In this document: positions 7,588 to 27,103 of the stretch, piece after piece
Layout of the letters: each line of letters opens with the position of its first letter
Position numbering within the stretch: the first letter of the stretch is position 1
Assembly (NCBI GenBank): GCA_965648905.1
Contig: CBFGIT010000028.1
Location: 1 to 33,761 of the forward strand
From: a candidate division WOR-3 bacterium
Lineage (GTDB): Bacteria; Hydrothermota; Tepidihabitantia; Tepidihabitantales; Tepidihabitantaceae
Length of the DNA: 33,761 nucleotides
Reading direction: 5' to 3'
Translations under genes and position numbers: made by a program
The notes under the pieces: generated by a model
Seen by the model: the letters and a program-made list of their open reading frames with translations, nothing else
What the model was told of the DNA's origin: nothing
Databases searched by the model: none

Positions 7588-9608
7588 CCAAGACCCGGGC
7601 TCCCAAAATCGGCGTCTATGTCTGCCACTGCGGCCTGAACATCGCCCAGACCGTAGACGTGAAGGCAGTGGCCGAGTACGCCGCCACCCTGCCCGATGTC
7701 GCGGTCAGCCGGGACTATGTGTACATGTGCTCAGACCCGGGCCAGGACCTGATCAAGAAGGACGTTAAGGAACTGGGCCTGACGCGTGTAGTCGTGGCCG
7801 CCTGCTCCCCGCGGATGCACGAACCGACCTTCCGCGGTGCGGTCTTTGGCGTGGGCATGAACCCGTATCTGTTCGACATGTGCAACATTCGCGAGCAGTG
7901 CTCATGGGTACACCCGGACAAGGCCGAAGGCACAGAGAAAGCCAAAGACCTGGTTCGCAGTGCTGTGGCCCGGGCCGCCCTGCTCGAAGCGCTGGAGGAG
8001 CGATACGCCGACGTAACCAAGACGGTCATGGTTGTGGGCGGCGGCATTGCCGGGATTCAGGCCGCGCTCGACATCGCTGAGGCCGGACATAAGGTCGTGC
8101 TGGTCGAGAAAGAACCGTCAATTGGCGGCCACATGGCCCAACTCGACAAGACCTTCCCGACCCTTGATTGCTCAGCCTGCATCCTTACCCCGAAAATGGT
8201 CGAGGCAGCGCGCCATCCCAATATCGAGCTCATGACCCTGGCCACGGTCAAGAAGGTCGCGGGCTTTGTCGGCAACTTCAAGGTCACGGTGCACCAGGAG
8301 CCGCGCTTTGTCGACCTTTCCCAGTGCACCGCGTGCGGCGACTGTGCCAAGGTCTGTCCCCAAAGGTTCCCGGACGAGTTCAACATCGGACTCTCGACCC
8401 GGACTGCCATTTACCAGTCGTTCGCCCAGGCCGTGCCCGCGGCGTTCTGCCGCAACGAGAAGCAATGCCTTGGCACTCTGCCCCTGGCGTGCGGCAAGTG
8501 CATCCAGGCCTGCGAAAAGAGGTGCATCAACTTCGACCAGCAGCCCGTGGACCGGGAACTGGACATCGGCGCGATTGTGCTCACCACCGGCATGGACGTG
8601 TTCGATGCCACGACTCTGCCCGAGTTCGGCTACGGTAAGTACCCGGATGTGCTCACTTCCCTTGAGTTTGAGCGGCTGTCGTCCGCAGGCGGGCCAACCG
8701 GCGGCCGGATAGTCAAGATGAGCGACGGCGAGCCGCCCAAGGATGTGGTCTTCATCCACTGCGTCGGCTCACGCGACAAAGCCGCGGGCAACGAGTACTG
8801 CTCGCGCGTCTGCTGCATGTTCATCATCAAACAGGCTCACCTCCTGAAGGACAAGAACCCGGACTGCAAGGTGACCAGTTACTACATGGACATCCGCGCC
8901 TATGGCAAGGGATTCGAGGAGTTCTATGACCGGGTGCGTGAAGAAGGAGTCATGTTCAAGCGAGGCAAGCCGTCCGAGATATTCAGGCGCAAGGGCAGAC
9001 TGGTGGTGAGGGTGGACGATACCCTGCTGGGCAAGGTCGTTGAACACGAGACCGACATGGTCGTGCTCGGCGTGGGCCTTGTGCCGAGCGAAGGACACAA
9101 GGAACTGGCCCAGACCCTCAAGCTCTCCTTGTCCAGCGACCGGTTTTTCCTCGAAGCCCACCCCAAGCTCAGGCCGGTCGACACCAATATCGAAGGCGTC
9201 TATCTTGCCGGCTGCTGCCAGGGACCGAAAGACATTCCCGACACCGTGGCCCAGGCCAAAGGTGCGGCCGCCTCAGCCATTGCTCTGCTCAACAAGGGCA
9301 AGGTCAAAGTCGAGCCGGTCGTGGCCGAAATAGACGAAGACGCCTGCTCGTTGTGCCACATCTGCGAGGCGCTTTGCCCGTACTCGGCCCTGGTCTACGA
9401 CGCGCAGAAAGACGTGATGACGGTCAACCAGATACTCTGCAAAGGCTGTGGGGTCTGCCCGTCAGCCTGTCCGTCCGGCGCAATCACGATGCGCCACTTC
9501 ACCTCGAAACAGATTGAGGCGCAGCTCGATGCCCTGCTCGCCGGAGCCGGGGACAAGGGGACTGCCAGAATGTCGACTGTACCCGAACATCAGAAGGCGG
9601 AGGCCTAG
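7584..9608 (+). CDS. hdrA: Heterodisulfide reductase subunit A-family FAD/Fe-S protein
   Basis: GVYVCHCG, MCS, AACSP, REQCSW, GGGIAG, KTFPTLDCSAC, CVGSRD..YCSRVCC and GCCQGPKDI; inserted and C-terminal ferredoxin CxxCxxC motifs. Confidence 0.93.
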   Translation: MTKTRAPKIGVYVCHCGLNIAQTVDVKAVAEYAATLPDVAVSRDYVYMCSDPGQDLIKKDVKELGLTRVVVAACSPRMHEPTFRGAVFGVGMNPYLFDMCNIREQCSWVHPDKAEGTEKAKDLVRSAVARAALLEALEERYADVTKTVMVVGGGIAGIQAALDIAEAGHKVVLVEKEPSIGGHMAQLDKTFPTLDCSACILTPKMVEAARHPNIELMTLATVKKVAGFVGNFKVTVHQEPRFVDLSQCTACGDCAKVCPQRFPDEFNIGLSTRTAIYQSFAQAVPAAFCRNEKQCLGTLPLACGKCIQACEKRCINFDQQPVDRELDIGAIVLTTGMDVFDATTLPEFGYGKYPDVLTSLEFERLSSAGGPTGGRIVKMSDGEPPKDVVFIHCVGSRDKAAGNEYCSRVCCMFIIKQAHLLKDKNPDCKVTSYYMDIRAYGKGFEEFYDRVREEGVMFKRGKPSEIFRRKGRLVVRVDDTLLGKVVEHETDMVVLGVGLVPSEGHKELAQTLKLSLSSDRFFLEAHPKLRPVDTNIEGVYLAGCCQGPKDIPDTVAQAKGAAASAIALLNKGKVKVEPVVAEIDEDACSLCHICEALCPYSALVYDAQKDVMTVNQILCKGCGVCPSACPSGAITMRHFTSKQIEAQLDALLAGAGDKGTARMSTVPEHQKAEA

Positions 9609-10037
9609 GTGCCCGACTTCAACCCGCGAATCGTCGGCTTTGCCTGCAACTGGTGCTGCTATGCCGGGGCTGACCTTGCCGGCACCTCACGTCTCAAGTA
9701 CCCGGCCAACCTGCGCATCATCCGGGTCATGTGCTCGGGCCGGATCGACCCGCAGTTCATCCTGAGGGCGTTCAAGGAAGGCGCGGACGGCGTGTTCATC
9801 GGCGGCTGTCACCCCGGTGACTGCCACTACGTCTCCGGCAACTACAAGACCCAGAAGCGTGTTGCGCTACTGCAGAACCTGCTCGAAGGACTAGGGATAG
9901 AGAAAGAGCGGCTGGCACTCGAATGGGTCTCAGCTTCTGAAGGTCAGCGCTTTGCCGATGCGGTTACCGCCTTCACCGAACGCATCCGGGCACTCGGGCC
10001 TCTGGACCCGACCGAGTCGGCACCGGCCCACGGTTGA
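9609..10037 (+). CDS. mvhD: MvhD/FlpD-type [2Fe-2S] protein
   Basis: FACNWCCYAGAD, RVMCSGR, GCHPGDCHY and WVSASEG. Confidence 0.92.
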   Translation: MPDFNPRIVGFACNWCCYAGADLAGTSRLKYPANLRIIRVMCSGRIDPQFILRAFKEGADGVFIGGCHPGDCHYVSGNYKTQKRVALLQNLLEGLGIEKERLALEWVSASEGQRFADAVTAFTERIRALGPLDPTESAPAHG

Positions 10038-13376: not shown

Positions 13377-16300
13377 TCAGCGAGTGCACACGAGCTTTGC
13401 ACCCACAACGCTGCCCTCGGCCTCCAGCCGAACTAGATAGACGCCTGCGCCGACCCGGTGACCGCAGTCCGAAAGCCCGTCCCAGCTCAAGTTGTACGAC
13501 CCGGGGCCGACCAGCCGGTCACCCGAATCAAAGATGCGACGTACCAGGCGCCCGGACGCATCGAACACCAGGACCCGCGCCGACCCGGCCTGCGCGAGCC
13601 GGAAAGAGAAAGCGGCGCGGCCGGTGCACCATGGATTGGGGCTGACCGAAAGCGGCGCGGCCCGAACTGAGCTCACACCCGCCTCAGCGACACCTCGGTA
13701 GACGTCGGTCGTGAACTTGATTGCCCGGCCCGGCACAATCGGGGCCGCGGCACGGTGGTAAGCGCTGTTGTACAGCACCTGAATGCCGATTTGGCAGGTC
13801 GGGTCCTGTGCACCCACAGTCGACGAAGTCATCGCCTGCGCGGTCTTGTACTGAAGGATAAACACATTGTTGCCTGTACCTGAGGCCATGGTCGTGTCGT
13901 AGATGATGACCTGGTTCTTCTCAAAGACCGTACGCGGGTTGTAGTATGGAACCGAATCCCACTCAACGATGAAGCGATGATTGGCTGCGTCGTGGTAGTA
14001 CCAGACGCCGCCGCCGGTCGGCGGGTACAGGTCGTCCCAGTTCACCGCTATGAGCATCGGCGCAGTAGGATCAGGCAGCCCGGTGTTGTTGTAGGACGAA
14101 TTCGTGGTCGAGCCGGGCGCGACCCAGCCGTTACCGCAAATTGACACTTGGGTAAAACGTTGGTCGTAAAAGATGAACGGTCCGAACGCTGGGGGCAGGT
14201 CGATGACCACGGTCTGGTCGTCGCTCAAGGAGAGACGCGTACCCAGGCCCCGGATTTCGACCCAGTCGTACTGTGGGTGCTGCTCGTACATCGAATCGAC
14301 GTCGTCGTAGGCCCAGTAGAGCTCGGGTCGGCGCGGACCATCCGGAATTGGGTCGGTCGCGGTGAGCTCACCCACGGTGACGGTAAATTCGCAACTGTCC
14401 GCATATCCGGTCCCGACCAGCCGGAGTTTCATTCGTGCCGTGTACTCGCGCGGGCAGTTCAGCCGTGCCCTGACCCGGAACTTGTCGGTCCAGCAGTAAC
14501 GGACCGAGTCCGGCTCAAGCGTGCCGAACGCGCCGGTAGAATCAACGACCTGAACCATTGTGTCCGGTGTCTGCAGTCGGGCCTCAAGATCGGCAACCGG
14601 GAGGCGGCCGATGTTGCGCAGAGCCACGACCAGCCCTGCGGTTTCGCCCGGGTCGAGCTTGCCGTCGCCATTACCACCAGGTGGCGAGTCCTGTACGATC
14701 TTCCCATGGAACACGACCGCAGCCGCATTGGCAGTCACCGCTTCAATTGCATCCAGGTCAAAGCCCGCGGTCGCACCCGAGGTCGCGCCTGAGTCATCCA
14801 CTACTTTGACGTACCGGCAGGTCGGCACTCCGCCCTGGCCCAGGTCGAAGCTTGCGCTGCCCGTGTCCCAGCCGAGCGAGGTCCACGGCCCGGCCCAGTC
14901 GTTGGCGACCTCGATGCGATACCCTTCCGGGTCTGCATCGTCTTCGTAAACCGTGAAGTCATTGCCCGGCAGGTTGAAAATCTGACGACCGAAGTCAAAT
15001 ATCGCCATACCACCCCGGCCCAGAGAGAAACGCCGGCCATCACGGAGACCAAGCGCCAGGTCCGGAGTTGAGGAAATCGCGATGTCACTCACGCCCCGGC
15101 CGGCAATGAACTGATGCAACGAGACCGGCCGGGTCGTGTCCGGCGCAAGCCGCACGTTGACATAGGAGACGGTGTCCGCAGTCACAACGATGTTCGGCAC
15201 GGTCTTGGCAGCGTAACCGTTGGCCTCAACGACAAGGCTGTAGGTTCCGGGCCGTAAGTAGCGGTGGAAATCGCCGATCGAGTCGCAGTAGCTCGGGAAA
15301 TCAATCGGCATGGGCTTGACTCGGGCCCGAATCGGCACCCCGGTCAAAGAATCGGTCACGATGCCCCGGATTCCCCGGTCAATGTTGGCCAAAAGCATCT
15401 TCATCGCGGTGTGCTCGCGGGCCGTAATCTGCGCCAAAGATTCGACCGGCGGTGTCTTGTAGATGCACGTCTCGATCGTCCAACTGATAGCACCGAGCGC
15501 GCCGTAGGCCCAGTCCTTGGACGCACCGTTTATCTGATACATACCACGGTAGCCCGGTGCATTAGGGTAGCCGGTGATGTTATGGTACTGACCGCCCAGG
15601 TACCAGAACTCCATCGAGTCACGCGTGCCATATGGCGTATAACTCCACGGCGTGGAGATGAAGTAAGTGCCGCCGTGGCCCGATGACCAGTAGTTGAACG
15701 CATTGCGCTGAGCCAGACGGGCATGGGCCCTGGTTTCAGGTTGGGTGAACGGCTCGCGGGCTGAGGTTTCGTAGTACCACATGAAACCGTAGTCGCGGTT
15801 GCAATCGTAGCCGTTGCGGTTTGACCTCGTGCCGACGATGTGGCCGTACGGGTTGGTCGGGCACTGGACCCAGATTTCGCGCGTGTTCACCCAGTAGGTC
15901 ACGTCCGGGTCAACGCCGTAATTGCGAATCAGCCAGGCCGCCCATTCGAATATCGGCTCGGTCGCGCACTTCTCGTCGCCGTGGATTGCCGCCTCGAACA
16001 TCAGCTCCGGCTCGTCTTCCTCGATGTCCGGGTTATCGGTTATCTTCAAAGCAAAGAGCAGACTGTCGTTGGAAGCATAACCCAGGGTTTCGAACTTGAC
16101 GAACCCCGGGTTGTTCGCAGCCATCAGCATGAACGTATCGCGTATCTCGGTGTAGGTATGGAAACGGTAATCCCGGGCATTCTCCTCGTAGAACGTGTAA
16201 ATGTCGGGTTTGACCATCTCCACCCGGAAGCCAGACGCAGCCAGCTCGTCGACGCGTGGTGCCGGCACTTCGACCAGGAACCAGCCGTCCTGGTCCGGGC

Positions 16301-16445
16301 CGTTGACAACACAGCCGGCCTGCTCAAGATACTCGATGTCGTCGCGCGTCCGGACATCAACCTTCACCAGGTCATAGCGCCCCGCAGCCGGCACCGAGGT
16401 GGCCGATAGCAGAAGCACAACGATAACGCAACAGCGGGCTTTCAT
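13377..16445 (-). CDS. Secreted M14 zinc carboxypeptidase, multidomain, with FlgD-Ig/T9SS-like C-terminal domain
   Basis: Signal peptide; HGDE (HxxE), RSNRNGYDCNRDY, SGHGG and catalytic Glu in TIET; GIRGIVTD carboxypeptidase-regulatory-like domain; C-terminal PNP...FDASGRLV...WDG...GVYLVRL...KLVCTR. Confidence 0.88.
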   Translation of the reverse strand: MKARCCVIVVLLLSATSVPAAGRYDLVKVDVRTRDDIEYLEQAGCVVNGPDQDGWFLVEVPAPRVDELAASGFRVEMVKPDIYTFYEENARDYRFHTYTEIRDTFMLMAANNPGFVKFETLGYASNDSLLFALKITDNPDIEEDEPELMFEAAIHGDEKCATEPIFEWAAWLIRNYGVDPDVTYWVNTREIWVQCPTNPYGHIVGTRSNRNGYDCNRDYGFMWYYETSAREPFTQPETRAHARLAQRNAFNYWSSGHGGTYFISTPWSYTPYGTRDSMEFWYLGGQYHNITGYPNAPGYRGMYQINGASKDWAYGALGAISWTIETCIYKTPPVESLAQITAREHTAMKMLLANIDRGIRGIVTDSLTGVPIRARVKPMPIDFPSYCDSIGDFHRYLRPGTYSLVVEANGYAAKTVPNIVVTADTVSYVNVRLAPDTTRPVSLHQFIAGRGVSDIAISSTPDLALGLRDGRRFSLGRGGMAIFDFGRQIFNLPGNDFTVYEDDADPEGYRIEVANDWAGPWTSLGWDTGSASFDLGQGGVPTCRYVKVVDDSGATSGATAGFDLDAIEAVTANAAAVVFHGKIVQDSPPGGNGDGKLDPGETAGLVVALRNIGRLPVADLEARLQTPDTMVQVVDSTGAFGTLEPDSVRYCWTDKFRVRARLNCPREYTARMKLRLVGTGYADSCEFTVTVGELTATDPIPDGPRRPELYWAYDDVDSMYEQHPQYDWVEIRGLGTRLSLSDDQTVVIDLPPAFGPFIFYDQRFTQVSICGNGWVAPGSTTNSSYNNTGLPDPTAPMLIAVNWDDLYPPTGGGVWYYHDAANHRFIVEWDSVPYYNPRTVFEKNQVIIYDTTMASGTGNNVFILQYKTAQAMTSSTVGAQDPTCQIGIQVLYNSAYHRAAAPIVPGRAIKFTTDVYRGVAEAGVSSVRAAPLSVSPNPWCTGRAAFSFRLAQAGSARVLVFDASGRLVRRIFDSGDRLVGPGSYNLSWDGLSDCGHRVGAGVYLVRLEAEGSVVGAKLVCTR

Positions 16446-18880: not shown

Positions 18881-20092
18881 TCAGGACGACCGCAGGTGCA
18901 GTACGTCTGGCGGCCGCCTAGGCTCTCGATAGAACGTCCCGTACCCGAGTCCCAGACGCCATTCTGCGCCGCGCGCTCCCAGAAAGAGCCCGGCAATATC
19001 ACTGGCGCCGAACGACACGCTGAGCCGGCCCACCAACAGTCCGGCGTCAAACCCAGCAATCGTCCCTGACTCCGAGTCAAACCCCAACCTGGTTGCCAGT
19101 GGCAGCCACGTCTTAGGCCATAGTTCGTACATCCCGACCACCGCCCAGCCGTCGTTGTCGGTTGCACCGGCCAGCCGCGTGAGTGCCACGATACCGACAT
19201 TCATCCGATCCGTGAACCGATGCCCGGCCACAAGGTTCAGCCGGACCGGCAGACGGGTGGTGAAGTAGCCGGAGCCGTTCGGACTGTATCCATACCAGGC
19301 CCGACCGCCCGAACCGAGCTCATAGACAGTGCAGGTGTCAAGGTCGAGCGAGTAGATGCCTTGCCGAATGCCTTCGGTCCAGACTATCCCGTCGGAAAGG
19401 TCAAGTACTGAAAGAGCCAGGTGGTAGCTTCCGACTCGACATGCAGCGCCAAGGTCTGCGGCCCAACCCGCACCACCCCGAGCCTCGCGGAAGGCCATGG
19501 TTCCGGCACCGACCAGCGCCGCCGGCGTTGTCAGAAGCGAGACCCGGGCGTCGGAAACCTCGCGGAAGTAGATTCCCTGAAGCCGGTGCGCCGCGACACC
19601 GAGCATCAGGTGCCGACCCAGCCCGGTCCCTACCCCGACTCCGCCCCGCCAGTAAACCTCGTCGCTTGCCCAGGCATTGTCGGCAACGTAGGTGCGGCCC
19701 AGCACGTTACCCTGAAGGGCCAGGTCAATCAAGTCCTTGGGCAGTCTCAGCCCGACCCGCCGCACGGTACGGACCGAAGCAGCAAGGTTGCCGTATCCGA
19801 ACTCAGCCGCTCCGGCCTGCAGGTAGCCGTTGAAGCCGAACCCTTCACTCGGAACCGTGTGCAGGATATCGGCCTTGGCTGCCGAGTCGAGATATGCGCC
19901 CGTATATCGGTTGTACTGACTGAAGCTCAGGCAGTTGTTCTCGACCCCGGCTCCGAGGTTGAGAATCCGGCACGCGAACCCGGGACGCTCGGGCGCGGCA
20001 AGCTGGGCCGGATTGACAACCAGCGCATCAGGGCCGGTCAGGAATGCAGGATTGAACACTGCGCCGAGCAGACAGGTGACCAGCACGATCAT
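18881..20092 (-). CDS. Putative outer-membrane beta-barrel protein (DUF5723-like)
   Basis: Short signal peptide; VVNPAQL motif; alternating amphipathic strands (GWAADLGA, LSVLDL, LPVRLNL). Confidence 0.65.
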   Translation of the reverse strand: MIVLVTCLLGAVFNPAFLTGPDALVVNPAQLAAPERPGFACRILNLGAGVENNCLSFSQYNRYTGAYLDSAAKADILHTVPSEGFGFNGYLQAGAAEFGYGNLAASVRTVRRVGLRLPKDLIDLALQGNVLGRTYVADNAWASDEVYWRGGVGVGTGLGRHLMLGVAAHRLQGIYFREVSDARVSLLTTPAALVGAGTMAFREARGGAGWAADLGAACRVGSYHLALSVLDLSDGIVWTEGIRQGIYSLDLDTCTVYELGSGGRAWYGYSPNGSGYFTTRLPVRLNLVAGHRFTDRMNVGIVALTRLAGATDNDGWAVVGMYELWPKTWLPLATRLGFDSESGTIAGFDAGLLVGRLSVSFGASDIAGLFLGARGAEWRLGLGYGTFYREPRRPPDVLHLRSS

Positions 20093-22017
20093 CGTCCACC
20101 TCCGGTCCGGACTCGAAGCGTCAAGAGCGCCCCCAGCCCAAGCCCGTCCGAGGCGAGGACGGTCACCGTATCCGACGCCGGCAGCTCGAAACGAAGCCGG
20201 GCCGAAAGCGGCCAGACCTGGAGCAGCGACAGCGCAACCGAGTCCAGCTCACACGCGACCGTCGTATCGCGGCTCCCCACGCAGTAGCCGTATCGGTCGA
20301 GCCTGCCGCGGCTCACACCAAAAGGTACGACCAGCGAATCGACCAGCGCCATACCTTTGCTGGCACTGTCCCGACTCAGCACCAGCCGACCGGTCATGCC
20401 CACCGGCAGATGGCTTGACGCCTCAATCCGGACGTTGGCGCCGACCAGATGCTTTGCCAGAAGCTTCCGCTGTTTCTCCGGCACCTCAACCGTCCGGACC
20501 GGCGTCTCGACAGTATCCGGCACAAATGCGAGGCGCAGCGGCGTGCTTACCACGGCCCGCGCCGAGGCCCAGGCTCCCTGTTGGCAACTGCCCGAGCCCA
20601 GGATTCGACAACTATACTCAGCGCAGATTGAGTCCGGCCCGACATTGAGCAGCTCGGTCACCGGGAACACGAACTCGGTGACAACCGGCTGTTCCAGTCG
20701 CCCGGCACTGGCAGTCAGCGTCTTTCCCAGCGTCGCGGCCCGCTCACCGTTGCGCAGTGAGTGAATTCGCAGACAGATTGCCAGCGGGAATCCGACGCTG
20801 TTGGCAACATCAAGTGCGAGCTCGGCATTGGCCACCCGCGCGCCCTTGAGCCGGTAAGGAAACACTTCCGGAAGAATCCGCCGGCACGAACCGATGTACA
20901 CCGGCGACTTGAACTCACCGGCAACAAGCGTGGTTCTGAGTGTCGTGGTTTGGTAGGACACGGTCACCCCGTCGTTCTTACCCAGTTCAACCAGGTCATC
21001 GGTCCCCAAAGGCCGGGCCCAGACCAGGTAGTCGAACAACGAGTTGACCCGACTTCGACTGTCAAGCTTCAGCCCGTCGAGCGGCAGATTGATACTCACC
21101 CTGCCTCGGGCTTCGAGCTGGTACTCGCCTGCGAATCCAAGCTTCGGCACACTCAGCCGCACCAGCGCCGGCACGTCGAAGTCGTTCGTCAACTCAAGCG
21201 ACCATGTGCCGGTGGCCAGTTCCAAGCTGTCGACACGAAAAGGCTTTGAGGCGGCGATTGAGACGTGACAACGCCGCTGCCCTTCGCAGTCCGGAATCCT
21301 CATCCGAGCGCTCCCTACGCGCAGCGACTCAAGTGCATAGCTGAACACGACTGAGTCCCGGCGACTCAGCATCACGGTGTCCGAGCCTGACGAACCGGCA
21401 ATGAACGTTGCCGGGAAAGACGAACCAAGGCACGCCCCTCCGCATCTTATTCCTGCTTCAACCGTCGCCCCTCCGGCGACCGACCCGAAGTCCAACCGCC
21501 CGAGCGGCGAGACCATGGTAAGCGAATCGAACGCCACGCTTGAGTAGTTCTGCGCCGTGACCCGAACCACCGCCTCGATCACCTCGGCCCGCTCCAGGCC
21601 ATCAATTCGGCAGTCCCGGCTGAACCGATTCTCAAACGGCGGCACCAGGCTCTTGCTGCCGGAATCAGGCAACGGCAGGCCGGTCATCTCTGCCAATGTC
21701 AACCTGACCCTTCCGGCTCCAGCATCGGCGATAACGAACTGCTCCAGCTCGACCCGATTGGTGCTGTCAGCCGCGAACACTTCCAGCGCTTCGTCCGGCC
21801 GCACGGTATCGAGCGGCAAAGCCAGACTGAACGATACCAGCGACTCGTCGTCGACCGCAAAGAGCGCCGTGTCGAGGAAATCAACCAGCCGTAGACTCCC
21901 GTTGTACAAAGGGATGTTCGCTTCGATGTCCCACTCCGGCGCTTCCGGCGCCCTCAGGCAGTAGGCGCCAATCAGTGCGCAGACAATTCCAACAACTGCT
22001 ACTTGATACCCCTTCAC
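20089..22017 (-). CDS. Large hypothetical exported/lipoprotein, coupled to the beta-barrel gene
   Basis: AGGAG RBS and GTG at 22017; hydrophobic leader ending in ...LIGAYC; ATGA overlap with the next gene. Confidence 0.7.
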   Translation of the reverse strand: MKGYQVAVVGIVCALIGAYCLRAPEAPEWDIEANIPLYNGSLRLVDFLDTALFAVDDESLVSFSLALPLDTVRPDEALEVFAADSTNRVELEQFVIADAGAGRVRLTLAEMTGLPLPDSGSKSLVPPFENRFSRDCRIDGLERAEVIEAVVRVTAQNYSSVAFDSLTMVSPLGRLDFGSVAGGATVEAGIRCGGACLGSSFPATFIAGSSGSDTVMLSRRDSVVFSYALESLRVGSARMRIPDCEGQRRCHVSIAASKPFRVDSLELATGTWSLELTNDFDVPALVRLSVPKLGFAGEYQLEARGRVSINLPLDGLKLDSRSRVNSLFDYLVWARPLGTDDLVELGKNDGVTVSYQTTTLRTTLVAGEFKSPVYIGSCRRILPEVFPYRLKGARVANAELALDVANSVGFPLAICLRIHSLRNGERAATLGKTLTASAGRLEQPVVTEFVFPVTELLNVGPDSICAEYSCRILGSGSCQQGAWASARAVVSTPLRLAFVPDTVETPVRTVEVPEKQRKLLAKHLVGANVRIEASSHLPVGMTGRLVLSRDSASKGMALVDSLVVPFGVSRGRLDRYGYCVGSRDTTVACELDSVALSLLQVWPLSARLRFELPASDTVTVLASDGLGLGALLTLRVRTGGGR

Positions 22018-22092
22018 CCTCAACTCCTGTTCAACCCCTGTCCGGAACCACCCCTGGTCCGGAACTGCTAACCGACCCCCCGTTCCTGCCGT

Positions 22093-22126
22093 AGAAAAAG
22101 GAGCCGCACAGACCCTGTGAGCGTCC
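22093..22126 (-). terminator. Candidate intrinsic terminator closing the structured RNA
   Basis: Minus strand GGACGCTCACAG-GGT-CTGTGCGGCTCC-TTTTTCT (bulged stem plus U tract). Confidence 0.5.
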
Positions 22127-22826
22127 AAGAGTGCCAATTTCTTAGAGAGGCGGCATTCTCTTTTTTTGCGAACAACCCTTCAGGCGTAAGGCAGCCCCGA
22201 AACACCGTATGTGGTCTGCCGAGCGGCCAAAGGATGGGGGCCGTTTGTGAGAGGACTTGGGCGTGGGCAGAATCCCAAGAAGGAGGCTAAGATGCCGGCC
22301 CCCGATGAAAGAAAGGCGGACGCTACGCCAAGTGACCATATCGCTTGGTGCCCGGCCCGGTGCCTGGTAACCGACCATTCCCCCGTCAAACTACTCTCCT
22401 CCTGAGTCAGACACCGGCCGAGACGCACCCGGCGGTAGGTCCGCGACCCTGTTTCCCCGTCAAAAGAAGAGCGGGCTCCTCCTTCCCAACACAGGGAAAC
22501 CGAATTGATGACGAGTAGAGCAGAAAGGCTCAAGCGGTTTGAGGCTGAGACAACGGCGAGAGGCTAAGATGGCAGAGAGACCCTTTTGTGATGCGCCCTT
22601 GATGAGAGCTGTCATCCCTTCTGCCCTACTCGTCCCGCGATGCGGCAAGCGAATTCTATGCCGCCCGGCAGACCACACTCCGAATTGTCAAAGAACCAGA
22701 CCTAGCGACTAGAAAAGGGGGTGCCCAGACCGAACCTTACAGAGACGCCAAACGGAGGAACCAATAGCTGACAAGGCACCCCCCCTCTGGAATTGTCTAG
22801 TCCAGGTAGTCTCATGCAACATTCGG
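22095..22826 (-). ncRNA. Candidate large multi-domain structured RNA (core 22209-22678)
   Basis: Nested helices 22209-22227/22660-22678, 22510-22528/22616-22634, 22451-22460/22491-22500, 22351-22366/22408-22422, 22316-22329/22431-22444 and 22236-22243/22296-22303; mismatches are A-C on plus and G-U on minus; no recognisable protein. Confidence 0.7.
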
Positions 22827-22836
22827 CACAGTGAAT

Positions 22837-22852
22837 AGCACCGGTCGTGCCA
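22837..22852 (-). promoter_or_regulatory. sigma54 (RpoN) -24/-12 promoter
   Basis: TGGCAC-GACCG-GTGCT with exact GG-N10-GC spacing; predicted +1 near 22826. Confidence 0.65.
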
Positions 22853-23050
22853 GCACTGACTCCGGCCATCGAATGCAGCAAGACGTTGGCAGTTCATGAG
22901 TTAGACCACGGACCACGAACCGTCAGGGTATGCGACACAGGCATCCACCGTGCGCGACCGGATATCATAACCATCGGATTTTCGGAACATTAGGCAATTG
23001 CGACACACGCCCCTTACCAGCCGCAGAAATGTACCGGTCGAGCACTCGGC

Positions 23051-23078
23051 TTGACTCGCTCCAGTCAGGAGTTATAAT
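23051..23078 (+). promoter_or_regulatory. sigma70 promoter of the rimP operon (probably leaderless)
   Basis: TTGACT-16 bp-TATAAT, 6 nt before ATG 23085. Confidence 0.7.
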
Positions 23079-23084
23079 CGAGCA

Positions 23085-23627
23085 ATGACCAGTCAGTTAC
23101 CGCCCGCAGTGTCAGAGCTCTGCCGCAAGGTGAGCGAGGAACAGCACGCCGAAGTCTACCACGCGGAGCTGAACGGCCGCGTGCTCAGTGTGCAGATTGA
23201 GGTGACCGGTGGCACGTCACTTGATGCCTGCGCACGTTTCTCGCGTGCCCTCTCGGCCGAACTTGACGCTGCCGACGCACTGCCGGGCCGATACGTCCTT
23301 GAGGTCTCATCCCCCGGGGTTGAACGCCGGCTTTACTGTCCGGCCGACTTCGCACGGGTCGTGGGTGCAGTGGTTCGGATAAGAACTTCGCAACGGACCT
23401 GGGAGAGCAGATTGCTTGCGGCAGACGATTCCTCCATCAAGCTGGTCGGCACCGAAGACAACCGGCCCAGGGCTGTCTCAATAATGTACGGTGAAATCAC
23501 CGAGGCGCGGGTGGTTGTCCGGGATGATGAGTTGTTCCGGTCACGACCAGGTCCCGCAACGCGTAGTCCGGTCGGTCCTGAGGTGGCCGCGACCGAGTCT
23601 GCGGACTGGCAGAAAGGGAATCAGTGA
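23085..23627 (+). CDS. rimP: Ribosome maturation factor RimP
   Basis: SLDACARFSRALSAELD and YVLEVSSPGVERRL; directly upstream of nusA. Confidence 0.9.
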   Translation: MTSQLPPAVSELCRKVSEEQHAEVYHAELNGRVLSVQIEVTGGTSLDACARFSRALSAELDAADALPGRYVLEVSSPGVERRLYCPADFARVVGAVVRIRTSQRTWESRLLAADDSSIKLVGTEDNRPRAVSIMYGEITEARVVVRDDELFRSRPGPATRSPVGPEVAATESADWQKGNQ

Positions 23628-25015
23628 ACAAAGACATCGCCAATCTAATAATCCAGATTGCCCGCATCCGCAACGTCGACGTCACTTACGTCTGCGAGAC
23701 CCTGCGCTCGAGCATCGTCGCCGGCTTGCGGCGTCGGTTCGGCTCCGACACTGAAGCTGATGCCGAGGTCAACGCCGATACCGGAGACATCCGGGTGTTT
23801 CTCGCTAAGAAGGTCGTGAATCAGGTCAGCCAGCCCGGACGTGAGATTTCAGTTGACGATGCTCAGGCCGTCAGCCCCGGGGCCCAGGCGGGCGACATGG
23901 TCCGGGTAGAACTGCCGCTCGATGAACTCGGACGGATTGCCATTCGTAAGGCTTCAGACGAGCTCATGCTCAAACTGCGCGAGGCCGAGCGAACCAAGCT
24001 GTTCGACGAATTCTCCAAGAAGAAGGGTGAGATCGTCACCGGCACTATCCAGAAAATCGGCCGGGAAGAAATCATCGTCAACCTCGGCCTGATTGAAGCG
24101 GTCCTACACACCCGGGAGCAACTCAAGGCGGACCACTATCGACAGGGATTGCCGCTCAAGGCCTATGTCCACCGCGTAGAAAAGACCGCGCTCGGCCCGC
24201 GCGTCTTTCTCTCCCGCACTCATCCGGAGTTCTTGAAGAAACTGCTCATCCGCGAAGTGCCAGAAATCCGTGAAGGCGTAGTTGAGATTAAGGGCATCGC
24301 CCGTTCGCCCGGGTTTCGCTCCAAAGTCGCCGTCACCTCACTCGACGAGAAAGTCGACCCGGTCGGTGCGTGCGTCGGCTACCGCAAGTCACGCATCGAG
24401 AACATCATCAAAGAACTATCGGGCGAAAAGATCGACATCGTCCAATGGAGCAAAGACCCGCAGGTTTTTATCGCTCGCGCTCTCGGGCCGGCCAAGGCCA
24501 CCGAAGTCCTCAAGGAAGGCGACTCATACATCGTCGTTGTCCCGGATGTCGAGTTCTCAATCGCGATCGGCAAGAAAGGCCAGAACGTGTGGCTTGCCAG
24601 CCTGCTTGCCGACGCGAAGATCGAAGTGCTCAAGGAAAGCGACTTTCGCAACCGGCAGGTAATGGCCCGCGCCTCGGCGGTCACCCTCGACAGAATCGGG
24701 TTCGAGCAGCCGCTGCTCGGTCGATTCAACGCGGCGGGCATCAACTCCGCGTTCGAGCTGCTCAATGCCCCGGTCGAGACACTCGTTGCCGTGACCGAAC
24801 TGCCGGCGGACGCAATCGAGCCGCTGCGCCAGGAAGTTCGCGATGCGGTCTGGCGCGGCGGTGACACCCGGATTGAGCTCCGGCCGACCCGGCCCGAACC
24901 AGCGGCCGCGGCCGCCGAGCCGGTGCCGAGCCCGCCAGCCCCGCCGCCGGACGAGCCCGGACCCTCAGTCGATAGCGCACCGCCTCCACCCGCCATCGAG
25001 GAGCCGGCAGACTAG
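23624..25015 (+). CDS. nusA: Transcription termination factor NusA
   Basis: LSRTHPEF, EVPEI, ARSPGFRSKVAV, DPVGACVG and AIGKKGQNV; Pro-rich tail. Confidence 0.95.
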   Translation: MNKDIANLIIQIARIRNVDVTYVCETLRSSIVAGLRRRFGSDTEADAEVNADTGDIRVFLAKKVVNQVSQPGREISVDDAQAVSPGAQAGDMVRVELPLDELGRIAIRKASDELMLKLREAERTKLFDEFSKKKGEIVTGTIQKIGREEIIVNLGLIEAVLHTREQLKADHYRQGLPLKAYVHRVEKTALGPRVFLSRTHPEFLKKLLIREVPEIREGVVEIKGIARSPGFRSKVAVTSLDEKVDPVGACVGYRKSRIENIIKELSGEKIDIVQWSKDPQVFIARALGPAKATEVLKEGDSYIVVVPDVEFSIAIGKKGQNVWLASLLADAKIEVLKESDFRNRQVMARASAVTLDRIGFEQPLLGRFNAAGINSAFELLNAPVETLVAVTELPADAIEPLRQEVRDAVWRGGDTRIELRPTRPEPAAAAAEPVPSPPAPPPDEPGPSVDSAPPPPAIEEPAD

Positions 25016-25021
25016 CACAGT

Positions 25022-27103
25022 ATGGCGCAGAAACGCAAGGTCTTTGAGGCCGCGAGCCTGCTCGGGCTGTCAAGCGAAGGGCTGATCGCCATCCTCAAAG
25101 AGCTCAACTACCCGGCGCGAGGCTACACCTCCTACATCACCGATGAGGAGTTCGACGCGGCGCGCCAGCGGCTGCGCAAAGAGAAACACCAGTTCAAAGA
25201 GACCATCCGCCGCCGCCGGACGCCGCCCCAGCCGACTCGCCCCGCCCCGCCGGTTGACAACCGGCTCATCGACAAGACCGTCCGACAGACACTCGTCAAG
25301 GTCCAGGGTCGCGCGATCAAACACCGACGGCCCGTGCGTGAGACCCGGACCACGGTCGAGCCCGAGGGCCGGTCGCTCGTCAAGGTCAACCCCTACATGA
25401 CCGTTGCCGAATTGGCCCATGCCTTCGGCACCACCGCCTCCGAGATCATCAAGAAATGTCTGGGAATCGGTATGCTCGCCACCGTCAACCAGCGCCTCGA
25501 CCTAGACACGATTCTCCTTATCGCCGACGCCTGCGGCGTCGAGGTCGAGCCGGCGGCCGAAACCGAGGCTGAAGTCGAACGCGGTGAGCCGCGCCCCCGC
25601 CCGCCGGTCGTGGTTTTCATGGGACATGTCGACCACGGCAAGACCGCTCAGATTGACTACATCCGCAAGACCCGCGTTGCCGAGCAGGAAGTCGGCCGCA
25701 TCACCCAGCATGTTGGTGCCTATGTCGCCTACTACGGCGGCAATCCGATCGTCATCCTCGACACACCGGGCCACGAGGCATTCACCGCGATGCGGGCACG
25801 CGGCGCCCAGGTCACCGACATCGCGGTACTGGTCGTCGCGGCTGACGAAGGCGTCATGCCCCAGACACTGGAGGCACTCGACCACGCTCGGGCCGCAGGC
25901 GTCCCCTTCATCGTCAATATCACCAAGCGCGACCTGCCGACTGCCAACCCCGACCGGGTCAAGGCCCAGCTCGCCCAGCACGGCGTGAAAGTCGAGGGCT
26001 ACGGCGGCGACACACTCTGCGTCGAGACCTCCTCGGTTACCGGCGCCGGCGTTGAAGAACTCCTCGACGGCATCTCGGTACTCGCGCTGGAACTGGACCT
26101 GAAGGCTCCCTACGACGGTCCGGCCACCGGTGTCGTCATTGACTCGCGTGTCGACCGGGGCCGGGGTAACATCGCGACTATTCTCATCGAACAGGGTACG
26201 CTGCGCAAAGGCGACCCGTTTGTTGCCGCCGAGCATCATGGCCGGGTGCGCGAGCTGCTTTCCGAGTCTTTCACTCCGCTCGACGAGGCAACGCCGTCGA
26301 TCCCGGTCCAGGTGCTGGGTTTCTCCGGACTGCCCCAGGCCGGCGACCGGTTCGATGTCGTCGCGGACGAACGGACTGCCCGCGACACGGCCCAGCGCCG
26401 ACTCCTGGCCAAGCGCGACCGCATCCTCTCGGCCACCAAGCCCAAAGTCAGCCTTGAGGCAATTCAGGAGCGGATCGCCGACGGTCAGATTCGGGAACTG
26501 AAGATCGTGCTCAAAGCCGACGTATCCGGGTCAGCCGAAGCGCTGAAGGATTCGCTTGAAGGACTGTCGCTCGATGAGGTGCGGGTCCGCGTCATCCACT
26601 CGGGTGTCGGGGCCATCAACCAGAGTGACGTGCTGCTCGCCCAGGCCTCAGAGGCAATCATCGTCGGCTTCCACGTCAAGCCGCTGGCCGATGCCCGACA
26701 GCAGGCCGAAAAGGAAGGCATCGAAATCCGCACCTACCGCATCATCTACGCCGCGATTGACGACATCCGGGCCGCCATGCTCGGTCTGCTCGAACCGGAG
26801 AAGAAAGAAGTTACGCTCGGTCGGGCCGAAGTGCGGCAACTATTCCGACTGCCGCGTGGGCCAGCGATCGCCGGCTGCTATGTCATCGAGGGTAAGGTCG
26901 TGCGTGACGCCTTGGTGCGCATCATCCGTCAGGGCAAGGTCGTACTGAGCAGCCGGGTCGGCTCGCTGCGCCGGTTCAAGGACGACGTCAAGGAAGTTGA
27001 CACCGGCTACGAATGCGGCATCGCGGTCGAGGACACCGACGACATCCAGACCGGTGACATCATCGAAGCCTACGCCATCGAAGAAGTCAGGCGCAACGCA
27101 TGA
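25022..27103 (+). CDS. infB: Translation initiation factor IF-2
   Basis: [40 protein letters not shown] and [15 protein letters not shown]. Confidence 0.96.

Follow-up and report, generated by a model that had tools for sequence, protein, structure and literature searches.

A boxA-led structured RNA of about 600 nucleotides with anti-Shine-Dalgarno-like loops in a candidate division WOR-3 bacterium

Introduction

The stretch of DNA considered here, called the window throughout, comprises 33,761 nucleotides (nt) of a candidate division WOR-3 bacterium (contig CBFGIT010000028.1 of assembly GCA_965648905.1). At about two thirds of its length, a gap of 950 nt without any credible open reading frame (ORF) separates a minus-strand ORF from the divergent, plus-strand rimP-nusA-infB operon. 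Two copies of a 12-mer lie in this gap. A first-pass annotation made from the letters of the window had placed them in two arms of a minus-strand RNA, read them as complements of a Shine-Dalgarno (SD) sequence followed by a start codon, and proposed that they were either guide loops pairing with translation-initiation regions or repeated protein-binding sites. Here we describe the RNA to which these copies belong. Comparison with relatives shows, at the level of sequence, a conserved and covarying minus-strand RNA that carries a boxA and a leader-trailer-type helix, and this RNA as a whole is a more interesting find than its loops. Its elements and the adjoining genes are as follows.

22097..22697, minus strand: the structured RNA over its full conserved extent of about 600 nt (limits from BLAST and nhmmer comparison with relatives, fold, counts of G-U and A-C pairs)
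22685..22696, minus strand: boxA-like element GUUCUUUGACAA, then UUCGGAGU (22677-22684); matches the bacterium's own ribosomal RNA (rRNA) boxAs and is kept in relatives, too, at the RNA's 5' edge
22660..22676, minus strand: 5' strand of the closing helix P1, GUGGUCUGCCGGGCGGC, on the leader side; pairs with 22211-22227
22513..22631, minus strand: 5' arm; the basal stem 22617-22631/22513-22528 encloses a hairpin (22601-22616), copy 1 and the third copy
22560..22571, minus strand: copy 1 of the 12-mer, in RNA sense CAUCUUAGCCUC, within a 34-nt region closed by GGCG (22594-22597) and CGCC (22555-22558)
22541..22551, minus strand: third, partial copy GUCUCAGCCUC; read by eye as the loop of a GUUGUC/GACAAC hairpin in several relatives
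22476..22489, minus strand: SD-like purine run UUGGGAAGGAGGAG, conserved in many relatives; candidate cis partner of the copy-2 strand
22236..22303, minus strand: 3' arm; outer stem 22296-22303/22236-22243, inner stem 22274-22279/22256-22261, hairpin loop 22262-22273
22280..22295, minus strand: copy-2 loop strand GCAUCUUAGCCUCCUU, with the 12-mer at 22283-22294; 5' strand of an internal loop
22244..22255, minus strand: strand opposite copy 2, UCCUCUCACAAA; UCCU conserved, the remainder variable and A-rich
22211..22227, minus strand: 3' strand of P1, GCCGCUCGGCAGACCAC, with covariation; the one G-U pair of this genome is G-C in a relative of the same genus
22100..22199, minus strand: 3' domain of about 100 nt outside P1 (alifold consensus and alignment), recognisable in shorter relatives
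20089..22014, minus strand: downstream ORF of 641 amino acids (listed as 20089-22137), whose N-terminus is hydrophobic, with Cys and PxxPxWD coming next
23085..27103, plus strand: divergent rimP-nusA-infB operon (Pfam)

A conserved structured RNA on the minus strand

In relatives, similarity to the locus ends sharply at about 22697 and 22097; the transcript itself probably starts further upstream than 22697. For the minus strand of 22138-22720 the folding energy is -243.7 kcal/mol, compared with -220.6 ± 7.1 kcal/mol for shuffled sequences (z -3.27; none of 100 shuffles was as stable). Consensus pairs predicted by RNAalifold from 29 sequences comprise, in the minus sense, 129 G-U against 17 A-C pairs, and the plus-sense fold is weaker. 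Together with the covariation described below, these figures bear out the annotated minus-strand RNA with two arms.

The DNA is conserved in 17 of 41 relatives by BLAST and is present in a single copy in the bacterium's own genome, here termed G000; other G numbers and all L numbers designate relatives' genomes and individual loci, respectively. In total, 34 non-redundant homologs were gathered from genomes and one metagenome scan. The pattern scan of the metagenome returned 27 loci, 24 of them with the RNA and three (L087, L088 and L095) without it. The corresponding scan of genome contigs returned 48 loci, among which the RNA was present in L045 only and the others were chance matches.

No known RNA family accounts for the locus in the searches made. 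With Rfam 15, the window at gathering threshold yielded a single transfer RNA (tRNA), and the interval 21900-23200 at E ≤ 10 yielded MIMT1_1 as its sole match (13.9 bits; gathering threshold 45) and no rRNA match. Four homologs (L175, L010, L173 and L008) searched at E ≤ 1 gave only microRNA-model matches far below gathering. RNase P RNA and transfer-messenger RNA sit elsewhere in G000, and no description of this RNA was found in the literature searched. The possibility that the locus is a fragment of 16S or 23S rRNA that has diverged was rejected, given the lack of an rRNA model match; a 10-mer shared with 16S rRNA, ACGCCUGAAG, is at chance level by our estimate.

Metatranscriptome contigs from three runs of two studies map to 22100-22764 at about 86-96% identity. 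One contig of 627 nt spans 22151-22764 and is nearly coextensive with the RNA, and the flanks 21800-22100 and 22790-23200 have no contig cover. As the relatives concerned were found using the RNA itself, this lack of cover carries no weight, and neither does a further run that gave no contig at the locus. The contigs belong to relatives and show neither strand nor ends, so they lend weak support to expression.

A boxA at the 5' edge and a long closing helix

The element at the 5' edge of the RNA reads GUUCUUUGACAAUUCGGAG, compared with GCUCUUUGACAAUUUGGAG and GCUCUUUGAUAAUUCGGAU before the bacterium's own 23S and 16S rRNA genes, respectively. It fits the γ-proteobacterial boxA consensus GYTCTTTAANA (PMC5725501) except for a G at position 8, which is common to the bacterium's own rRNA copies; that survey, by its own statement, leaves non-coding RNAs out of consideration. 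An extended motif, G[CU]UCUUUGACAAUNUGGAG, occurs five times in G000: upstream of 23S rRNA, upstream of an ORF and repeats resembling clustered regularly interspaced short palindromic repeats (CRISPR), at two paralogous loci, and at the 5' edge of the RNA. The 23S copy lies about 28 nt before the model start (contig C13), and a close variant, GCTCTTTGATAATTCGGATG, is found about 60 nt upstream of 16S rRNA (contig C20).

The surroundings of these other sites can be described briefly. The 16S and 23S genes are on separate contigs, each preceded by its own boxA (L105 and L110 on C20; L108 on C13), and a group I intron model match of 43.2 bits (gathering 50) adjoins the 23S match. At C1:111350 on the plus strand (L106), a boxA-like GCTCTTTGACAATTTGGAG stands upstream of an ORF, and about 1.45 kb further on there are eight repeats matching Rfam CRISPR-DR32 at 33.7 bits (gathering 48). 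The paralogous loci L107 (C6:123904, minus strand) and L109 (C29:3466, plus strand) are near-identical, with the extended boxA and about 150 nt conserved upstream of it; downstream there is no Rfam match.

About 8 nt after the boxA begins the 5' strand of P1, a helix of 17 base pairs in G000 whose partner strand lies about 450 nt downstream and which encloses both arms and a variable centre. The duplex is -26 kcal/mol or stronger in 24 of 29 homologs, the behaviour looked for in a leader-trailer helix. Five further sequences were skipped for want of anchors, and the five weak duplexes are of the type of a second family, for which the partner-search window was perhaps a misfit. The strands vary in a compensatory manner, as UGCC/GGCA, CACC/GGUG, CGUC/GACG and CGCG/CGCG. 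Beyond P1, the 3' domain is closed by a helix of GGGGCUGCC and GCGGCUCC and contains an inner helix (AGAG-UGCC/GGCA-CUCU) whose loop (22141-22156) carries the fourth GCCUC. In G000 as well as the second and third families, the domain is succeeded by a U-run, and a weak terminator-like site is present at 22115-22101.

The repeated 12-mer and the two arms

The repeat itself is genuine. On the plus strand, the 12-mer GAGGCTAAGATG is exact at 22283-22294 and 22560-22571, with no other copy in the window, and a partial third copy, GAGGCTGAGAC, lies at 22541-22551. TTTGTGA is likewise found where it had been annotated, at 22244-22250 and 22585-22591; with four occurrences in the window against 2.55 expected, and at least four in 28 of 100 shuffles, it is not above chance. 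The longest exact direct repeat within the 601-nt RNA is 12 nt, and since 20 of 1000 dinucleotide shuffles contain one of at least 12 nt, the repeat by itself is merely mildly unusual. GCCUC occurs four times in the RNA, compared with 1.33 expected.

The stems of the 3' arm are paired in 97.7% of cells, with four pairs changed on both sides, and none of 500 shuffles scored as high. The inner stem, for instance, changes from CUUGGG/CCCAAG to CUCGGG/CCCGAG in one genome. An alternative inner pairing, UUGGG/GCCCA, was not counted, L085 being without GCCCACG but keeping CUUGGG/CCCAAG. Conservation of copy 2 was counted in 22 genomes found by an arm covariance model, not by the exact motif, with L141 (size limit) and G054 (partial hairpin) excluded. 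In these genomes AGCCUCCUU is kept in 21, CAU in 18 (CGU and CAC replace it in two each) and the exact 12-mer in 14. The 16S rRNA of G000 ends in GGAUCACCUCCUUUCUA, and CCUCCUU is common to the 16S tail and the copy-2 strand. Copy 2 is predicted to be unpaired at 0.52-0.83 in 13 homologs, compared with about 0.37 for the whole RNA.

The basal stem of the 5' arm shows compensatory changes in 10 of 11 pairs (22 sequences). At copy 1, CAUCUNAGCCUC is found in 13 of 22 aligned sequences; its sixth base is C in most relatives and U in G000, so that the perfect identity of copies 1 and 2 is particular to this genus. Pairing inside the copy-1 region varies, with GAGGG/CCCUC in the second family and CUUAG/CUAAG or CUGAG/CUCAG in single sequences. 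The predicted unpaired fraction of copy 1 is 0.47-0.89, and all 13 homologs tested are mostly unpaired there. A mini-hairpin shared by both arms, GGC-AUCUUA-GCC, was proposed by RNAalifold and rejected: uncompensated changes disrupt it in 3 of 27 sequences, and copy 1 cannot form it.

These comparisons partly confirm the first-pass observation and lend partial support to its interpretation. The two copies had been assigned to the same internal loop in permuted orientation; they are in fact in non-equivalent settings, and only 2 of 22 genomes have UCACAAA, the supposed opposite side, in exact form. In the reading as anti-SD plus anti-AUG, the first half stands, CCUCC being anti-SD-like and matching the 16S end, but CAU is altered in 4 of 22 genomes and missing from shorter relatives. 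The annotation had further suggested that invariant loops would indicate a protein site, and variable loops that track targets a guide. Copy 2 is near-invariant, and by this criterion favours a protein or structural site over a guide. Copy 1 is more variable, and UCACAAA is not conserved. Deep conservation is, as far as these alignments go, limited to the CCUCC core of the 3' arm, AGCCUCC(U/C)UU; the 5' arm copy and CAU appear to be lineage-level features.

Within the RNA itself, the purine run (22476-22489) is the best duplex partner of the copy-2 loop in 13 of 31 sequences, but shuffled loops pair just as well. A triple-helix clamp, with two pyrimidine strands around a purine strand, would be a purely speculative arrangement.

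Search for messenger RNA targets

The proposal that the loops guide the RNA to start regions of messenger RNAs (mRNAs) was not sustained, since complementary sites are not enriched and duplex energies are those of shuffled loops. Outside the RNA gene, G000 contains one exact complement of the 12-mer, where an ORF of 1000 or more amino acids begins (C4:54353). With up to one mismatch there are nine such sites, against about 13 expected by a hand calculation assuming uniform composition. In 41 genomes the 13-mer GGAGGCTAAGATG occurs 21 times, 12 of them in RNA genes and nine elsewhere (L111, L113, L114, L116, L118, L119, L120, L126 and L131), compared with one occurrence of a reversed-pattern control. 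The nine outside sites do not significantly exceed the 4.9 expected from 5006 GGAGG-N5-ATG sites.

When the four GCCUC strands were paired with 5376 crudely defined start regions of G000, duplex energies differed from those obtained with shuffled loops by no more than about 1 kcal/mol (median -16.1 compared with -15.75), and the start region of the downstream ORF ranked only at 0.10-0.43. The mvhD start region, GGAGGCCTAGGTGCC at 9599-9613, had been singled out in the annotation. As read from the letters, 13 of its 15 positions would indeed find a partner in the copy-2 loop, one of them as G-U, and the ORF at 9609-10037 encodes a protein of the FlpD/MvhD family. Of the properties of a trans-acting anti-SD seed, the RNA has a conserved strand that is predicted to be unpaired, and it lacks start-region enrichment.

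Distribution and shorter relatives

Of 66 genomes belonging to the order, 24 have the RNA according to the arm covariance model. Besides G000, these comprise 21 of 43 genomes of its own family and both genomes of the second family; none of three other families has a match, nor does any of 125 genomes sampled from the phylum outside the order. The family of the downstream protein is wider, being present in 40 of the 66 genomes. In two further families, a shorter RNA of about 400 nt lies upstream of the protein homologs, at all six such loci examined.

These shorter RNAs have a boxA (GUUCUUUGAAAA), the purine run (GGGGAGGAGGAG) and the 3' domain. Their 3'-arm homolog contains UUAGCCUCCC or UUAACCUCCC, without CAU. 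Additionally, an element (U)CACCUCCUUACC (UACCUCCUUACC in L173) matches the 16S tail of the lineage, and the ORF carries an extended SD, AAGGAGGUG, complementary to a 5' element, CACCUCCUU. In the second family (L010), a 5' element resembling the 16S tail, AUCACCUCCU, pairs with AGGAGGUGAU to form the inner part of the closing helix; helices of CCUCC with GGAGG thus do occur in this family of RNAs. The equivalent of the 5' anti-SD-like element is degenerate in the bacterium's own family (UCCUUGCC).

Neighbouring genes

The downstream ORF probably has its true start near 22014. Its product matches no Pfam family and resembles hypothetical proteins of Fidelibacterota and Bacteroidota; the N-terminus looks like an export or lipoprotein signal. 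The gene immediately after the RNA, in the same orientation, is a homolog of this ORF in 29 of 34 non-redundant loci. At L014, L016 and L017 there is no such ORF; a terminator-like hairpin and a tRNA (tRNA-Ala by reading of the anticodon loop) come after the RNA instead, which means that the RNA persists without the gene.

The start region of the ORF, GGAGUUGAGGGUGAAGGGGUAUCA (about 22003-22031, minus strand), is nucleotide-identical in L003, L004, L006, L012, L081 and L091, although the proteins are 30-40% identical, and this suggests a constraint at the RNA level. A run of five to seven G at about 22056-22066 (minus strand), between the 3' domain and the ORF, is kept in nearly all loci and stands at SD distance from the start codon in some relatives. 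Further downstream are genes for a DUF5723 protein (18881-20092, minus strand) and an M14 carboxypeptidase whose C-terminal domain is of the FlgD_ig type (13377-16445, minus strand). Along with the resemblances of the linked protein, these neighbours point to the Fibrobacteres-Chlorobi-Bacteroidetes (FCB) group; the lineage is uncultured.

On the other side, rimP and/or nusA are found divergently upstream in 23 of 34 non-redundant loci. The exceptions are short contigs and a genus-level group (L008, L009, L011, L078 and L098) with more than 1 kb of flank. A strong promoter-like site of the sigma-70 type (TTGACT, 16 nt, TATAAT; 11 of 12 matches) is present at 23051-23078 on the plus strand. It ends 7 nt before the rimP ATG (23085), and rimP may therefore be nearly leaderless.

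Interpretation

The reading that we favour, at a probability of roughly 0.5, is that the two 12-mers are pyrimidine-rich strands, conserved and for the most part unpaired, in the arms of a novel RNA of about 600 nt, where they serve as fixed recognition surfaces. The boxA would recruit NusB and NusE and protect RNA polymerase, as it makes a long transcript that is not translated, against termination by Rho. P1, a leader-trailer-type helix, would then enclose the folded core, as in precursor rRNA (pre-rRNA). The loops would bind a protein or purine-rich, GGAGG-type strands of their own transcript, a kind of pairing directly visible in the closing helix of relatives (AUCACCUCCU with AGGAGGUGAU); they would be fixed recognition surfaces and not programmable guides that select start regions. 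Transcription and folding of the RNA may well be Nus-dependent.

Several points weigh against this reading. Recruitment of NusB and NusE by this boxA is a prediction from its sequence match, and evidence of expression consists of contigs only, from relatives. No partner was found for the loops, and their invariance leaves no covariation to test. Pairing of the copy-2 strand in cis with the remaining RNA (CCUCCUUCUU with GGGAAGGAGG) is no better than that of shuffled loops, and by reading, the candidate cis pairing is absent from L014, L016 and L017. Furthermore, all nine sites of the 13-mer outside RNA genes are starts of ORFs with hydrophobic N-termini, similar to signal peptides or membrane segments, compared with about 55% of the GGAGG-N5-ATG ORFs in G000; this leaves a small opening for a role in trans.

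The RNA could instead be a giant 5' untranslated region of the 641-amino-acid ORF, in which the anti-SD strands sequester the ribosome-binding site and a boxA-modified polymerase reads through the U-run. Such an arrangement would agree with the frequent co-linearity of RNA and ORF, which extends to the shorter RNAs of two further families, with the identity of the start region among diverged proteins, with the complementarity of SD and 5' element in the shorter RNAs and with the U-run shared by three families. We nevertheless regard it as unlikely, for the RNA is kept at three loci without the ORF, so that the two are not lost together, and the ORF start region ranks unremarkably among all start regions. 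Any strong SD, moreover, complements an anti-SD-like sequence by construction, and the 5' CACCUCC element is already paired inside the closing helix. It is somewhat more doubtful still that the RNA acts in trans, its loops pairing with the SD and AUG of particular mRNAs or sponging SD-led mRNAs as a decoy of the 16S tail. The loops are predicted to be unpaired and share CCUCCUU with that tail, CAU or CAC, the complements of AUG and GUG, is present in 20 of 22 genomes, the single exact 12-mer target is a gene start and the nine 13-mer sites all precede hydrophobic N-termini. Site counts and duplex energies, however, do not rise above expectation, CGU replaces CAU in two genomes and the shorter relatives are without CAU. 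The nine genes are not established orthologs, and one of them is in G026, where the RNA arm was not found.

A bolder and rather improbable variant would regard the RNA, at about 450-600 nt, as a miniature rRNA-style unit, folded with Nus factors as chaperones by virtue of its boxA and leader-trailer helix, that displays mimics of the 16S tail, as free CCUCCUU strands and built-in SD:anti-SD duplexes, and acts as a decoy tuning SD-dependent translation globally. It would compete with the 30S subunit for SD-led mRNAs, here mostly those of secreted proteins, or titrate a factor that binds the 16S tail, and a link with 30S biogenesis and initiation would come from its place beside rimP-nusA-infB. 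Finally, the motif might belong to the plus strand, as real SD and AUG of small ORFs or as part of a rimP-nusA-infB leader. Both copies do read GAGG-CTAAG-ATG on that strand and open ORFs of about 37-50 codons, and synteny with rimP-nusA is common. We give this very little credence, as the excess of G-U over A-C pairs favours the minus strand, on which the boxA also reads; in relatives the peptides are 5-37 amino acids long and unconserved beyond MPAP, which corresponds to the outer stem, indels are not multiples of three, and rimP has its own strong promoter-like site.

Comparison with known systems

BoxA and the Nus factors act on rRNA, on a few mRNA leaders and on CRISPR arrays. With the suhB leader and CRISPR arrays, the RNA described here shares a boxA that is not part of an rRNA operon and whose transcript is translated weakly or not at all; unlike in these cases, the boxA heads a large structured RNA. 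The closest architectural parallel is the pre-rRNA leader. In pre-16S rRNA, boxA is followed by boxC, the 5' strand of the leader-trailer helix, and the nascent RNA between them is thought to be looped out (PMC10250234). As there, a boxA of the bacterium's own rRNA type at the 5' edge is followed by a long covarying helix that encloses a core; in contrast, the enclosed RNA is not 16S, 23S or 5S rRNA, a 3' domain of 100 nt lies outside the helix and a protein gene usually comes next. By analogy, Nus binding and processing by RNase III would be predictions for this RNA.

In its size of 500-700 nt, many conserved helices, invariant loops, narrow range and tight gene linkage, the RNA resembles OLE, GOLLD, ROOL and HEARO, but it has no sequence or structure match to them and is led by a boxA. 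A dedicated OLE search gave no match, and control genomes were likewise without one. OLE is tightly linked to oapA; the protein linked to the present RNA looks exported from its N-terminal sequence and is thus unlikely to be a cytoplasmic RNA partner of the OLE type. RsaE and RoxS are small RNAs whose C-rich seeds pair with SD regions, and they have in common with this RNA unpaired, conserved CCUC(C) motifs in several loop copies. The RNA here, in contrast, is six times larger, boxA-led and partly co-linear with a downstream gene, and shows no target enrichment. CsrB and RsmZ are sponges with many GGA motifs in loops, whereas the motif repeated here is (Y)AGCCUC, in three or four copies, and not GGA.

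Concluding remarks

The history of this locus illustrates that an eye-catching repeat resembling the complement of a ribosome-binding site can be genuine and conserved and yet fail tests for targets; the main discovery is the surrounding RNA and not the repeat. The anti-SD-like loops, together with the SD:anti-SD helix built into the RNA of relatives, raise the idea of a mimic of the ribosomal tail. The boxA, P1 and the invariant loops offer concrete experimental handles. If the proposed reading is true, a large and ornate RNA that employs the whole design of pre-rRNA would represent a new use of the boxA/Nus machinery.

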